DNA from: a virus
Taxonomy: Duplodnaviria > Caudoviricetes
Length of the DNA: 64,000 nt
Virus record (IMG/VR): IMGVR_UViG_3300040811_001959
Reading direction: 5' to 3' (one strand)
Positions within the stretch are counted from its first letter, which is position 1, and each line of letters opens with the position of its first letter. The translations under genes and the position numbers were made by a program. The notes beneath the pieces are model-generated. The model saw only the letters and a list, made by a program, of their open reading frames with translations. It did no database searches and had not been told where the DNA came from. Below are positions 10,789 to 14,352 of the stretch, one piece after another.

Positions 10789-12256
10789 GTCCGTTGTCTC
10801 CGTTCGAAAAAGTGGTGCTGCCAAAATTTACTGCGGCTGCACTACTACTTAAACTCAGTTTACGCCACACATAGTTAGATCTGGATCCTGCACCGTGCAA
10901 AACTATGTCACTAAAATCACTGCTGCTCACTCCCGAATCGGACACGGTCAACGACATAAAGTTGGTGTTCATTGCACCTGAACTCCAGGTATACCGTTTT
11001 ACATAATCTCTTGGTGTGTAAGGATAATTTCCATAGTTACCAGTGATGTATGCGTAGGTACTGTTGCCCGCCGACTGCATCACATACATGACCTCACCTA
11101 GGCTGCCGGATCCTACCACTGAATTCTGTGTCACATGTGAAATACGCATGGTGTCTGATCGTCGTGCGGTTGACCAATCGCCAGCACCTGCCAACGAAGT
11201 ATCCACGCCATTTGATACATTAAACACATGCCGTCGTCCGAAGGTCAGCATCTGTCCCCAGGTTAAGCTGGTAGAATCAGTACTGAAACTCTTGTATGAA
11301 ATAGGTCGTGTGTTACCGGTTGGTCCTGGCGAATTGGATGGATTCCACCATCCGCCGGTCATGATACACACTTCTGAATTACCTGATGCTGCACCAAGAT
11401 AGTGAACAGCCGCCGAGTTACCCCAGCTGATAGCATTTGAATTGCGAGAGAGATCCTTGTAGGCTACATCAGTATATCCGCCATAGCCGTTGTAACCACC
11501 TGACATCATCACCTGCCAGTTGGTACAGCCTGCTCCGTTCCCGCCAGTCGTGGAAGGTAAGGTGCCAAAGCTGGCTTCATTGGTACCTGAGTTCCATGCA
11601 CGGCGTGTAAACGAAGCTGTATATCCCCCTGAAGTGCCGCCACCTGCCAATACCATGTAAGCGGTTGATTTACACAGATAAGGCATTGTATAATTAAACC
11701 AACTGCCTAAACTCCAGTAATACGAATAGTAGTTTGCATGGGCAGCATAGAAACCAGGTCTGTTGTAGTTATGGAAGCTGGCAAAGTATCTGCGAATGCT
11801 GCTGTAGTAAAAAGTTCCACCTCTTGTTACCATGCCCATGTCAGCACCTGCACCATACTGCCAGGTAGTCACCGAGAGATACTGGAGTTGTGCGTTTGAT
11901 AAACTTGAGAAATCATTCCAATCCGCCACTGTCCAGTCTGAGCCTATGTCTGCGCTGATACGATTGTTGGCAAGGTTAACATCGTTACTCTCCGTGTAGG
12001 TATTCACAGTTGGTCGGAACTTTAGACCAAGCGAGGCAATATAGCCTATCTTCCCTGCGGTGTTGGCTAGGCCAGTTGCTTGGCTGCTAACTCCATAGAA
12101 ATCGCTGAATCGAATCGTTCCCGAACTGGGAGGACCAGCACCTGCAGGAGTGTATGCACCACCTGCGTAGTATTCTGATAAACCAATAGGATTCGAACCT
12201 CCTAGTTCTGATTGTATGTTCGCAGCGGATATCTGTCCTGAACTCTGTAGTGCCAT
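10775..12256 (-). CDS. tail-fibre/virion-surface-like protein with beta-repeat C-terminus
   Basis: MALQSSGQIS..IQSELGGSNPIGLSEYY N-terminus; G/S/T/N/Y-rich body with repeated SxG-x5-GG...YK units. Confidence 0.7.
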   Translation of the reverse strand: MALQSSGQISAANIQSELGGSNPIGLSEYYAGGAYTPAGAGPPSSGTIRFSDFYGVSSQATGLANTAGKIGYIASLGLKFRPTVNTYTESNDVNLANNRISADIGSDWTVADWNDFSSLSNAQLQYLSVTTWQYGAGADMGMVTRGGTFYYSSIRRYFASFHNYNRPGFYAAHANYYSYYWSLGSWFNYTMPYLCKSTAYMVLAGGGTSGGYTASFTRRAWNSGTNEASFGTLPSTTGGNGAGCTNWQVMMSGGYNGYGGYTDVAYKDLSRNSNAISWGNSAAVHYLGAASGNSEVCIMTGGWWNPSNSPGPTGNTRPISYKSFSTDSTSLTWGQMLTFGRRHVFNVSNGVDTSLAGAGDWSTARRSDTMRISHVTQNSVVGSGSLGEVMYVMQSAGNSTYAYITGNYGNYPYTPRDYVKRYTWSSGAMNTNFMSLTVSDSGVSSSDFSDIVLHGAGSRSNYVWRKLSLSSSAAAVNFGSTTFSNGDNGHGPG

Positions 12257-12298
12257 ATACATATTTAGTGTCAGATAAATATATTAAAGGAGAGCAAC

Positions 12299-12568
12299 AT
12301 GGAAGATCAAATCCCTGAGTATGAATTAGATCCAGACACACAGGCACTCTTGCAGACAGTACTAGAACTGGCACTGATGAGCGCTAACCTACAGCTTGAT
12401 CCTAAGAACACACAGTCAGTAATGGACATAGTGTTCACCACCGCACATAGGTTTGGTATAGAGTTCGCCACGATCACACAGGAACCAAACACAGACCAAG
12501 CCGGAATAAACCTACAAGACTTACCTTTCGACATCCAAGTTACATTCATAGACAATATATCAGAATAG
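12299..12568 (+). CDS. hypothetical acidic protein
   Basis: TAAATA then AAGGAG RBS. Confidence 0.65.
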   Translation: MEDQIPEYELDPDTQALLQTVLELALMSANLQLDPKNTQSVMDIVFTTAHRFGIEFATITQEPNTDQAGINLQDLPFDIQVTFIDNISE

Positions 12569-12747
12569 GTCACCGCTGCTAGTCAAGTGCTAGCCAGTGG
12601 TCACCGCTGCTACGGTCTAGTGTTACACAGCGAACACTAATGGTCACCGCTGTTAAGGTCTAGTACACAACAGGATAGACCAATGGTCACCGCTGTTAAG
12701 GTCTAGTACTACACAGATACGGATAATGGTCACCGCTGTTAAGGTCT
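12568..12747 (+). repeat. five-copy interspaced repeat, 43-bp period
   Basis: GGTCACCGCTG at 12568, 12599, 12642, 12685, 12728; consensus AATGGTCACCGCTGTTAAGGTCTAGT with 17-nt variable spacers. Confidence 0.9.
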
Positions 12748-12770
12748 GCTAAATACCGAAAGGAGACACT

Positions 12771-12944
12771 ATGTACATAATACACATACCAGACAACCAA
12801 CAGATAGAACCAAAGCTTAGATCTACCTATAGTGCTGCATGTAAAGAGAAACAGAGCTTAGACCAGTTAGTAGGTAAACCCAGTGCAGTAATAGATCAAA
12901 TCGCAACTGTAAGATTTACAAACCAGGATACGAAAGATGAATAG
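12771..12944 (+). CDS. small hypothetical protein (not in ORF track)
   Basis: CTAAATA then AAGGAG RBS then ATG; 57 aa. Confidence 0.5.
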   Translation: MYIIHIPDNQQIEPKLRSTYSAACKEKQSLDQLVGKPSAVIDQIATVRFTNQDTKDE

Positions 12945-13257
12945 AGAAACATATACATATGCATGCAGCATTTGTAGCATTAACTTCATATGCTATATGT
13001 GATTGGTACTGTGAATAGTACCACGTGCAGTCGTTGAGACACAACCGTAGAGTCAGTGAAACCAGTCGAGAGACTGTCGACTACTGTAATAGACTCGAGT
13101 TTGCAAAGTGATCGAGTCGGTTTGCAAAGTGATGCATTGTGATGCATTATGGAGACAGAGTATTTAAACTATGCCTGTCACCACCATTCTCCACCTTTTT
13201 TCACCATTCTCAACCGTGCCTCTTTTTTCGTAAGAAAATTCACATTTAAATTACAAC

Positions 13258-13283
13258 AAAAGTTAGCAGATACTAACTTTTTT
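13258..13283. terminator. hairpin / possible bidirectional intrinsic terminator
   Basis: AAAAGTTAG-CAGATA-CTAACTTTT perfect 9-bp stem. Confidence 0.45.
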
Positions 13284-13299
13284 GGTTAGTAGATACTAA

Positions 13300-13459
13300 A
13301 TTTGCATATAACTATATGTGCATATATGCATATGTGCATATACAAATATTTGTATATTTTTACATTTGTATATTTAAATATTTGTTTATTTAGATATTTG
13401 TATATTTTTACATTTATATATTTAAATATTTGCATATTTAGATATTTATATATGCAAAT
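13300..13459. repeat. very AT-rich low-complexity block with a ~48-bp tandem duplication, bounded by 11-bp inverted repeats
   Basis: ATTTGCATATA (13300-13310) / TATATGCAAAT (13449-13459); unit ATATTTGTATATTTTTACATTTRTATATTTAAATATTTG..ATTTAG occurs twice. Confidence 0.8.
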
Positions 13460-13497
13460 CCTCACCTGTTTTCACCCCTACCCCAAATTCCACCATA

Positions 13498-13678
13498 AAC
13501 TGAATATTATGTTTTCCAAATCTGGTTGGAACTGAATATTATGTTTTCCTAATTTGCCCTAGCACGGTTCTTGCATACCGTTGGAACTGAATATTATGTT
13601 TTCCTAATTGGGTTGGAACTGAATATTATGTTTTCCAAATCTCCGTCAGATTGAAACTGAATATTATGTTTTCCTAAT
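13498..13678 (+). repeat. five 24-bp iteron-like direct repeats
   Basis: AACTGAATATTATGTTTTCCWAAT at 13498, 13530, 13585, 13617, 13655. Confidence 0.92.
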
Positions 13679-13709
13679 CCAGGCGGAGGGGTGGTGAGAT
13701 GGACCTTGA

Positions 13710-13773
13710 AAAAAGATCCGTAATGATCACAGTGACTTAGCAGTAAGTCACTGATATTGCACGGGATCATTTC
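13710..13773. promoter_or_regulatory. palindromic upstream element, copy A
   Basis: AAAAAGATCC-N10-CAGTGACTTA-GCAG-TAAGTCACTG-N10-GGATCATTT. Confidence 0.75.
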
Positions 13774-13775
13774 CG

Positions 13776-13804
13776 TTGCAATTCTCACCCCGTGCTAGTA
13801 TACT
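13776..13804 (+). promoter_or_regulatory. early promoter P1
   Basis: TTGCAA-17-TATACT followed by the ACAGTGAGCGA leader. Confidence 0.75.
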
Positions 13805-13860
13805 ATATGGACAGTGAGCGAAGGGCTTGCTTTTATACGCAACACAAACGGAGATACTTG

Positions 13861-14352
13861 ATGTCCAAGCAAAGAACATTCTTAAGAGACGTGATCATTC
13901 CTACTCTTCCAGAACTGTTTCCTACAGAAGAGTCCCGTGAATATGCAATGAAAAATCCGCATATATATAATGTAGAACATCTCGTAGAAATATGCCTAGC
14001 CAAGGTTGGCGGCTACGAGTTTGTAGATGAAGAAGGATATGACTTTACAGACTATTCAGACTCAAAGACTACCAGTATAAATGAGAAAACTCTTGTGCTT
14101 ACGATATGCTCAGTAGAAAATAAGATCGGTAGTCTCCGTATTTGTGCCTACAATCCAATCGCAGATCGCATTGACTTTTTCTACATGACACAGAGTCAAT
14201 TGAGGGCGACTGAGGTTGCTTGTTGGGGGAAGAACAGTCATAAGACTCGTATACTTGCTAGATGGAACGCAGGTCGAGACAATTATAATTCTTTTGAAAA
14301 GTTCCGTGTAGACTCATTTGAAACTCTTGCAAAGAAAGGGACACTGAAATGA
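13861..14352 (+). CDS. hypothetical early protein
   Basis: GGAG RBS; start MSKQR downstream of P1. Confidence 0.7.
   Translation: MSKQRTFLRDVIIPTLPELFPTEESREYAMKNPHIYNVEHLVEICLAKVGGYEFVDEEGYDFTDYSDSKTTSINEKTLVLTICSVENKIGSLRICAYNPIADRIDFFYMTQSQLRATEVACWGKNSHKTRILARWNAGRDNYNSFEKFRVDSFETLAKKGTLK

Follow-up and report, generated by a model that had tools for sequence, protein, structure and literature searches.

Iterons are known from P1 oriR/incA, F oriS, RK2 oriV, and, as O-protein sites, lambda ori, and the sopC centromere of the F plasmid consists of twelve 43-bp tandem units with one SopB site each. The PeSL cassettes of T4-type phages, reportedly described by Arbiol et al. in 2010, are said to combine a sigma-70 early promoter with a stem-loop and to occur many times per genome. 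To our knowledge, the origins and early/late control regions of uncultured aquatic T4-like and jumbo phages are unmapped. TIGR arrays are built from two alternating 8-12-nt repeats (edge and loop) and two 9-nt spacers in a 36-nt unit or, in an alternative form, from box C/D stem-loops, and they typically stand beside a Nop-domain gene (Faure et al. 2025, PMC12045711; TIGRFinder preprint, 10.64898/2026.09.09.750476). Here, we describe an array of five short, co-oriented boxes in a 64,000-nt stretch of DNA (IMG/VR virus record IMGVR_UViG_3300040811_001959), which is called the window in the following and the source of which is an uncultured aquatic jumbo phage. A first-pass annotation of this DNA had preferred a processed guide-RNA array or a multi-hairpin protein sponge and had named a DNA iteron set as the alternative. 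Having compared the locus with its relatives, we tentatively favor the alternative: to judge from the sequences, the array may be an iteron-like set of helically phased, protein-binding DNA boxes that flanks an origin and an early/late control region.

In the window, GGTCACCGCTG starts at positions 12568, 12599, 12642, 12685, and 12728. A sequence search recovered exactly the five copies and the intervals of 31, 43, 43, and 43 nt that had been read before, and Tandem Repeats Finder (TRF) reported a period of 43 with 3.5 copies (score 176). Beyond these copies (12568-12738), a search of both window strands that allowed one mismatch did not find the box again, and a count of five was reached in none of 100 shuffles. 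The 26-nt constant part described in the first-pass annotation is identical in units 3-5, as claimed, but unit 2 deviates from it at two positions; the three 17-nt spacers do carry ACAG at a common offset. The array occupies the 202-nt gap separating two small plus-strand late genes, open reading frame (ORF) 12299-12568 and ORF 12771-12944. Box 1 begins at the final base of the stop codon of the former, and the array end is followed after 11 nt by TAAATA (22 nt from the start of box 5 to its start), then by AGGAG and by the ATG at 12771, so that the position given earlier, directly after a late-type gene and before a TAAATA promoter, is correct. The same arrangement of TAAATA, Shine-Dalgarno sequence, and ATG is found upstream of several other window genes, as expected for T4-type late promoters. 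The features of the array are as follows.

12568-12578, plus strand: box 1 (GGTCACCGCTG), also the 5' arm of hairpin 1 (sequence search, folding)
12599-12609, plus strand: box 2 (sequence search)
12642-12652, plus strand: box 3 (sequence search)
12685-12695, plus strand: box 4 (sequence search)
12728-12738, plus strand: box 5 (sequence search)
12568-12605, plus strand: hairpin 1, in which the partner of box 1 is the sequence just 5' of box 2 together with the initial 7 nt of that box
12657-12681, plus strand: unit-3 hairpin GGTCTA...TAGACC (folding z-score of -4.03), present in the homologous units of close relatives
12750-12765, plus strand: T4-type late promoter box TAAATA (12750-12755) and Shine-Dalgarno sequence AGGAG (12761-12765) of the next gene, placed by layout and conserved in relatives

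Units 3-5 each also contain one mini-ORF (12640-12663, 12683-12706, and 12726-12752), which reads ATG GTC ACC GCT GTT AAG GTC plus a stop (TAG in units 3 and 4) and has no Shine-Dalgarno sequence. It is missing in the GGCCCC clade and is therefore probably fortuitous.

Relatives of the locus were obtained through the homologue clusters of the ORF 12299 protein (37 clusters) and a metagenome scan, and they comprise 39 distinct versions of the intergenic region. Except in two truncated loci, each version has two to five boxes on the gene strand. The box takes the form GGTCACCGCTG in the clade of the window and GGCCCCGCTG in all others, with occasional GACCCCGCTG copies, and the part of the repeat that is conserved across relatives is only 10-16 nt long. 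Distant clades have unrelated spacers with no common sequence. The later spacers are nevertheless constrained in length, with nine unrelated 43-nt and five unrelated 53-nt examples; on the box strand, C accounts for 34% and G for 11% of the 53-nt spacers, and alternating A-pyrimidine runs are abundant in spacers generally. In close relatives (83-94% protein identity; L017, L020, and L043-L045), the differences consist of point changes in the spacers and of gain, loss, and partial duplication of whole units. TAAATA before the downstream gene is conserved among relatives, apart from L076 and L077, which have no such box. A relative recognized by its fiber gene (L015) differs in synteny and is without the array, the region is missing from the nearest record (G001), and no DNA match to the window region or to L146 was found among the cultured phages of INPHARED in near or distant mode.

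The box is not restricted to phages with the ORF 12299 family. IMG/VR was scanned for two GGCCCCGCTG copies 36-65 nt apart. Many of the matches were coding repeats of the collagen-like type (GCTGG, with spacings that are multiples of 9) and were excluded; besides these, the scan gave about 35 non-coding loci of low GC content. They have no member of the ORF 12299 family and belong to other aquatic T4-like phages, with T4-type endonuclease V and a 2OG-Fe(II) oxygenase among the neighbors. A scan of viral contigs for the GGTCACC variant together with GGTCT gave 14 matches, all of them single chance matches in GC-rich coding sequence. From 193 distinct instances, the consensus is A(-3) W A(-1) GGCCCCGCTG Y D R, 16 nt in length. 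The longest arrays have seven units (e.g., L162, with a 46-nt period), and carriers thus have two to seven copies. In each of the five whole records searched, the box is confined to a single locus: the CheckV-complete record of 357,559 bp (G004) has three copies on one strand, the 261.8-kb record has two, and three further records have three, three, and four. The 49.8-kb relative G002 has an extra single GGCCCCGCTG copy (L079 15876-15905) in its early region, 5.5 kb from the array, where it forms the 3' arm of a GC-rich hairpin immediately past a stop codon. The twin-box RNA RF01718 is not present in G001 or G002.

Across all loci, the distances between neighboring boxes (74 non-redundant pairs) show two peaks, one at 43-44 nt (22 pairs) and one at 53 nt (9 pairs). 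For a period of 10.5-10.7 bp, the mean phase of these pairs is +0.6/-0.4 bp (V-test u = 4.2-4.3, 74 pairs). Boxes in the same orientation and 43-44 or 53 bp apart, which corresponds to four or five helical turns, would place bound proteins on one face of the DNA, and a single cooperative complex would then be possible.

The strand of the boxes is not tied to the local transcript, because in L146 and L091 a conserved small opposite-strand gene, with its own TAAATA next to box B, lies between box A and boxes B and C, and because the strands of the flanking ORFs are mixed over all loci. This gene is missing in L121, L149, and L174 and thus comes and goes inside the box region. Its product, a small protein encoded in L146 (10989-11189, minus strand), in L091 (7548-7780, minus strand), and also in L097 and L115, has the motif GW-x-S-x-G ... 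F/Y-Y-I-P-E ... D-Y/W.

Several known classes of control site were considered and rejected. No sigma-70 promoter was found inside the array units, and a promoter immediately upstream of each box was discarded since TATA-like hexamers are merely broadly enriched there (-14 to -6 and -22/-21). Resemblances to sigma-54 sites, MotA boxes, and boxA fail, by eye, at the site-defining positions. A lambdoid nut site consists of a boxA sequence of the CGCUCUUA type followed by a boxB hairpin. Although CGCTGTTA in units 3-5 matches boxA at 7 of 8 positions, relatives conserve the 5' GGCCCCGC, whereas the boxA-like 3' part varies among them as Y-D-R, and a hairpin occurs in the first unit only, unlike nut boxB. 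Restriction-site avoidance was also dismissed, since neither GGCC nor GGTNACC shows marked avoidance elsewhere.

Downstream of the array, the window has two further features of the control region.

13160-13185, plus strand: conserved element with the core ...TTTAAACTATGCC...CACCACC, also present after the box array in other phage groups
13295-13679, strand not assigned: AT-rich tandem block of 8/16/48 bp (13295-13453) and five 24-nt iteron-like repeats (13498-13679), conserved in L016

The first of these belongs to a AACTATGCC...CACCAC element that lies downstream of the array in 29 of 43 loci from several phage groups and that could be a promoter, a protein site, or an RNA start. Such elements are also seen at L146 11290-11320, L091 7870-7900, and L137 3050-3085. 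Just before the element in the window, positions 13098-13148 hold two copies of TTTGCAAAGTGAT and two of GTGATGCATT, which may be further protein sites of the control region. The second feature is the probable origin core, and it occupies the place that clusters of DnaA boxes take in other carriers. The 255 kb of loci contain only seven clusters of at least four DnaA boxes, each with four to seven boxes within 150 nt, and every one of them is located 620-850 nt beyond the last box, on the side toward which the boxes are oriented. In G004 (L137 3440-3550), a stretch of about 105 nt that immediately precedes the first sigma-70 early promoters holds six DnaA boxes of the TGTGGATAA type. Clusters of four to seven boxes are also found in L090, L097, L115, L126, L135, and L161. 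This suggests that the phages recruit or titrate host DnaA, and the same relative position of the clusters in other carriers gives independent support to the candidate origin.

We now turn to what the boxes may do. The case for a DNA site comes from five observations: the box is kept copy by copy while the spacers are free, the spacing is in helical phase, there is a single locus per genome, the boxes depend neither on the neighboring gene nor on its strand, and the array keeps a fixed position on one side of the DnaA or iteron region. Co-oriented short conserved boxes with free spacers, helical register, and a unique locus beside origin-type features and a late promoter are what is expected of iterons or operators, and of the readings offered in the first-pass annotation, it is the iteron set, named there as the alternative, that fits these observations. 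On this evidence, the boxes would be sites for a sequence-specific, oligomer-forming DNA-binding protein, and many aquatic T4-like phages, most of them jumbo phages, would share a composite non-coding control region that has the array on its left side. The order of that region would be the box array, optional small late genes, the AACTATGCC-type element, a DnaA cluster or iterons with an AT-rich block, and sigma-70 early promoters, and it would most likely be the replication origin of the phage. An origin of this kind would be in line with the DnaB-like helicase and the Pol III alpha-type polymerase that the window encodes, a replisome of the bacterial type. Next to the origin and the adjacent late promoter, the array itself could act as an auxiliary iteron set, through handcuffing-type control, or as a boundary complex, either an insulator or a roadblock that separates late transcription from the origin.

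Several points weigh against this reading. (i) The first spacers (31-64 nt) are unphased, and a minority of the later ones (38, 46, and 50 nt) are off phase. (ii) The near-zero phase rests largely on two length classes, which descent rather than selection could partly explain. (iii) For classical iterons, a distance of 0.4-0.85 kb from the putative origin core, in many cases with intervening small genes, is large, and the identity of the region as an origin is itself deduced. (iv) The array is present in the RNA libraries of three studies, and the CA-rich, G-poor composition of the spacers on the box strand is an asymmetry that fits a constraint at the RNA level better. (v) No candidate for the box-binding protein emerged from the flanking small proteins, which are acidic or poorly modeled and gave no family or fold match.

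If the boxes are protein sites, they offer a handle on a conserved DNA-binding factor and an aid to locating origins in metagenomic phage genomes. In the records searched, the box is a short and easily searched marker of one locus per genome, with a fixed distance and direction from DnaA clusters or other iterons and from the early promoter block. The boxes would also suggest that these phages, with their bacterial-type replisome, use composite origins, with some lineages recruiting host DnaA.

The genes on either side of the array are both small.

12299-12568, plus strand: small late gene for an acidic protein of 89 aa, with TAAATA at 12276 and an AGGAG ribosome-binding site upstream; its stop codon abuts box 1
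12771-12944, plus strand: small late gene for a protein of 57 aa, both ends of which are conserved in relatives

The ORF 12299 protein has no match in Pfam or PHROG, and its AF2 model, a two-helix hairpin with a pLDDT of 69, is uninformative. Atlas look-ups of the 89-aa and 57-aa proteins returned nothing usable. ORF 12771 is shortened or missing in some relatives that still have the boxes. Its end is overlapped by a small gene at 12937-13002 (beginning ATGAATAGAGAAAC), which in the window stops after 21 codons; in relatives, this gene encodes a protein of 52-59 aa with a hydrophobic segment and a CDYYC-type motif, and the window copy looks truncated. Elsewhere, the window encodes, besides the two replisome proteins, a carbamoyltransferase, three tRNAs, and an AAA+ protein that weakly matches both a clamp loader and a DnaC-like helicase loader. 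Among the ten window proteins scanned, the neighbors of the array have no Pfam or PHROG match except for one marginal family of unknown function, and no cas family was found among these or among the called genes around the arrays of relatives. A Nop-domain Tas gene does not adjoin the array, the 89-aa and 57-aa proteins being without Pfam match and the called neighbors in relatives likewise. The earlier statement that no cas or Nop-domain gene is recognizable thus holds for the flanking genes of both the window and the relatives. These flanking genes also include no partition-type (ParA/ParB) family.

The explanation that survives next best, although we regard it as rather unlikely, is that the array works as RNA, within the late transcript of ORF 12299, where it would be an intercistronic or 3' untranslated segment. 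The first hairpin would protect the upstream message, and the CA-rich, unfolded linkers would present the boxes as repeated single-stranded sites to be bound or cut by an RNA-binding protein or endoribonuclease, with a role in regulation, processing, or sequestration (a sponge). In the clade of the window, all boxes are indeed on the strand of the flanking genes, with the first abutting a stop codon, but in other groups they flank an opposite-strand gene and lie in regions without an evident promoter for the box strand. Contigs from the RNA libraries of three studies cover 12501-12629, 12588-12781, and 12677-12818, while part of the neighboring fiber gene has zero cover and the early genes have a cover of 30-80, some 10-fold more. 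A low level of transcription is therefore probable for the array, although these contigs have a depth of 1-9 and define neither ends nor strand. A loose adapter-like end at 12628 in contig X2 is a single case and was not used. Because L076 and L077 lack TAAATA, transcription of their downstream gene must come through the array; the 53-nt spacers, rich in C and poor in G, and the unfolded internal units would suit linkers in RNA. On the other hand, there is no evident reason at the RNA level for length classes that differ by 10 nt and keep phase with the DNA helix, and a single locus beside DnaA boxes points to a cis-acting DNA site.

Folding bears on the same question. Folding z-scores were obtained by comparison with shuffles. 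Hairpin 1 has a z-score of -4.98, none of the 200 shuffles folding equally well, and it is the sole spacer hairpin present in all clades, with a different sequence each time; the first spacers of 32 lineages (31-64 nt, unrelated in sequence) mostly have z-scores of -3 to -5.5. This conservation of a fold with differing sequences, together with changes between L057 and L070 that convert U-A pairs to U-G pairs, speaks for RNA. However, the hairpin folds about equally well on both strands, each being favored in 16 of the 32 lineages, so that no strand can be called. The first-pass annotation had three units folding and the fourth weak. This stands for unit 1, for unit 3 (GGUCUA/UAGACC; above chance, with relatives offering no covariation), and for the weak unit 4 (z = -0.45), but not for unit 2, whose UAGUGUU/AACACUA hairpin has a z-score of -1.43 (15 of 200 shuffles fold equally well) and is disrupted without compensation in the close relative L017. 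Taken whole, units 2-4 fold no better than shuffles (z = -0.2 to -0.7), and the mean z-score of 16 non-redundant internal units across relatives is +0.33. The hairpin past the ORF 12299-12568 stop codon is a real feature in its own right and probably a 3'-end or stabilizer structure of the mRNA of that gene. It does not qualify as an intrinsic terminator, there being no GC-rich hairpin with a U tract and hairpin 1 running into box 2 rather than a T run, and no terminator-like site was predicted in 12150-13900. No Rfam family was found at the gathering or E-value threshold, and mir-297 matches at 13300-13380 are low-complexity noise. A more specific form, in which the late transcript is cut at each box into RNAs of about 43/53 nt or loads one protein per box, seems to us quite improbable; if true, aquatic T4-like jumbo phages would each encode, at one place next to the origin, a ruler-defined array of small RNAs or ribonucleoproteins without cas or Tas.

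A further possibility, which we consider unlikely, is that the array consists of decaying tandem duplicates of a promoter module, of which only the last unit (the box as an upstream element plus TAAATA) is functional, and the internal units are recent, functionless copies left by slippage or unequal crossover. The internal units of the window match the last one over the first 26 nt and diverge just at the position of TAAATA, TATA-like hexamers peak at 11-13 and 19-23 nt after the box, and a composite of the box, GGTCTGC, and TAAATA recurs in unrelated contigs. Copy number shifts among close relatives, adjacent units are identical in L045 and L044, L020 has a partial duplicate, and one RNA-library contig lacks one unit (joint 12619-12677). 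Yet every box is intact while the promoter part decays, which implies selection on each box and not on promoter function; all clades have at least two boxes, and spacing is retained where sequence is lost. An upstream element of late promoters would, moreover, be expected at other late promoters, whereas the box occurs at one locus per genome.

It is very unlikely that the boxes are oriented sites for a machine that tracks along DNA, either Chi-like sites (RecBCD/AddAB type) or polar barriers to forks or transcription. The motif is short, GC-rich, strictly co-oriented, and tandem at one place, its orientation relative to the DnaA cluster is constant, and its reverse complement contains AGCGG, which we take to be the Chi sequence of B. 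subtilis. However, Chi-type sites require neither fixed spacing nor the flanking A-W-A, the conserved 10-16 nt are longer than known Chi sites, and no DNA end is known at the locus, through which the window's own contig of 273,945 bp continues. A barrier role would overlap with the protein-binding array favored above rather than compete with it.

Least credible of all is an array of guide RNAs (CRISPR, TIGR, or other) that yields RNAs of about 43 nt whose variable parts direct a protein to targets: the window does look like repeats and spacers (26 nt constant, 17 nt variable), the stretch is present in RNA libraries, and TIGR systems are known in phages (PMC12045711), but the conserved part comes to 10-16 nt only, with CA-rich spacers of 20-54 nt, close relatives show drift and unit duplication instead of new spacers, the window holds no further match to its three spacers bar one hit at 3 mismatches, the TIGR layout of two alternating repeats or box C/D stem-loops with a Nop-domain gene is not present, the flanking genes have no Pfam or PHROG match, and carriers have only two to seven copies. 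The first-pass annotation had named two observations that would tell against its preferred reading, an array that is not transcribed and spacers that differ among relatives by point drift from a tandem duplication. The second is what the close relatives display, as point drift with duplication and loss of whole units, and it argues against variable spacers serving as guides; the first was not borne out, since RNA-library contigs cover the array. With its short conserved part, drifting spacers, unfolded internal units, and poor fit to CRISPR and TIGR, the locus gives little reason to retain either the guide array or the multi-hairpin sponge, and it illustrates that a CRISPR-like look in one genome can vanish when relatives are compared.

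Among the known systems, CRISPR arrays resemble the locus in their alternating constant and variable segments and in being transcribable. The array differs in having a far shorter conserved repeat, drift and unit duplication, no cas gene in the flanks, two to seven units, and no polarity of novelty at a leader end. A CRISPR repeat of about 23-50 near-identical nt would be approached by the 26-nt constant part in the clade of the window only, and the changes in L017, L020, and L043-L045 are not those of independent spacer acquisition; no protospacer was found in the window. Like the array, TIGR systems are phage-borne tandem arrays of short conserved and short variable parts, but here there is a single box per unit in place of the two alternating repeats or box C/D stem-loops of TIGR-Tas, with spacers of 17-43 nt, a period of 43/53, and no Nop-domain gene in the flanks. 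PeSL cassettes share with the array the repetition of intergenic modules between which small genes come and go (L091, L146, and L121 in our case), whereas the array has no sigma-70 promoter in its units and occupies one locus per genome. With sopC, the array has in common a 43-bp period, one short protein-binding core per unit (predicted here), and a unique cis site. However, the units of sopC are near-identical, with a 16-bp inverted-repeat core and adjacent partition genes, while the array has divergent spacers, an asymmetric box, and no ParA/ParB-type flanking gene. The variable part of its box is a small palindrome (GGCC or GGTCACC, 4-7 nt), and a sopC-type centromere was rejected on account of this short sub-palindrome and of the flanking genes, which contain no partition family.

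The comparison with iterons is the closest. They too are co-oriented short boxes with free spacers and in helical register, and they occupy a unique locus of the replicon close to an AT-rich block and to DnaA boxes; as with the array, a small gene is flanked by the iteron sets in P1. Classical iterons are 17-22 bp long, lie about two turns apart, and are found inside the origin by the rep gene, whereas the array has a 16-nt box repeated every four to five turns, stands 0.4-0.85 kb from the DnaA or iteron block, and has no identified initiator gene; the second set of the window, at 13498-13679, corresponds to more classical iterons. Searches of the literature for the motif returned only unrelated primers and genes, and no paper containing it was found. 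An iteron-like box array beside an origin is a known kind of element; what is new is the box itself, together with its spacing of four to five turns, the distance that separates it from the origin core, and the range of aquatic T4-like phages that carry it.

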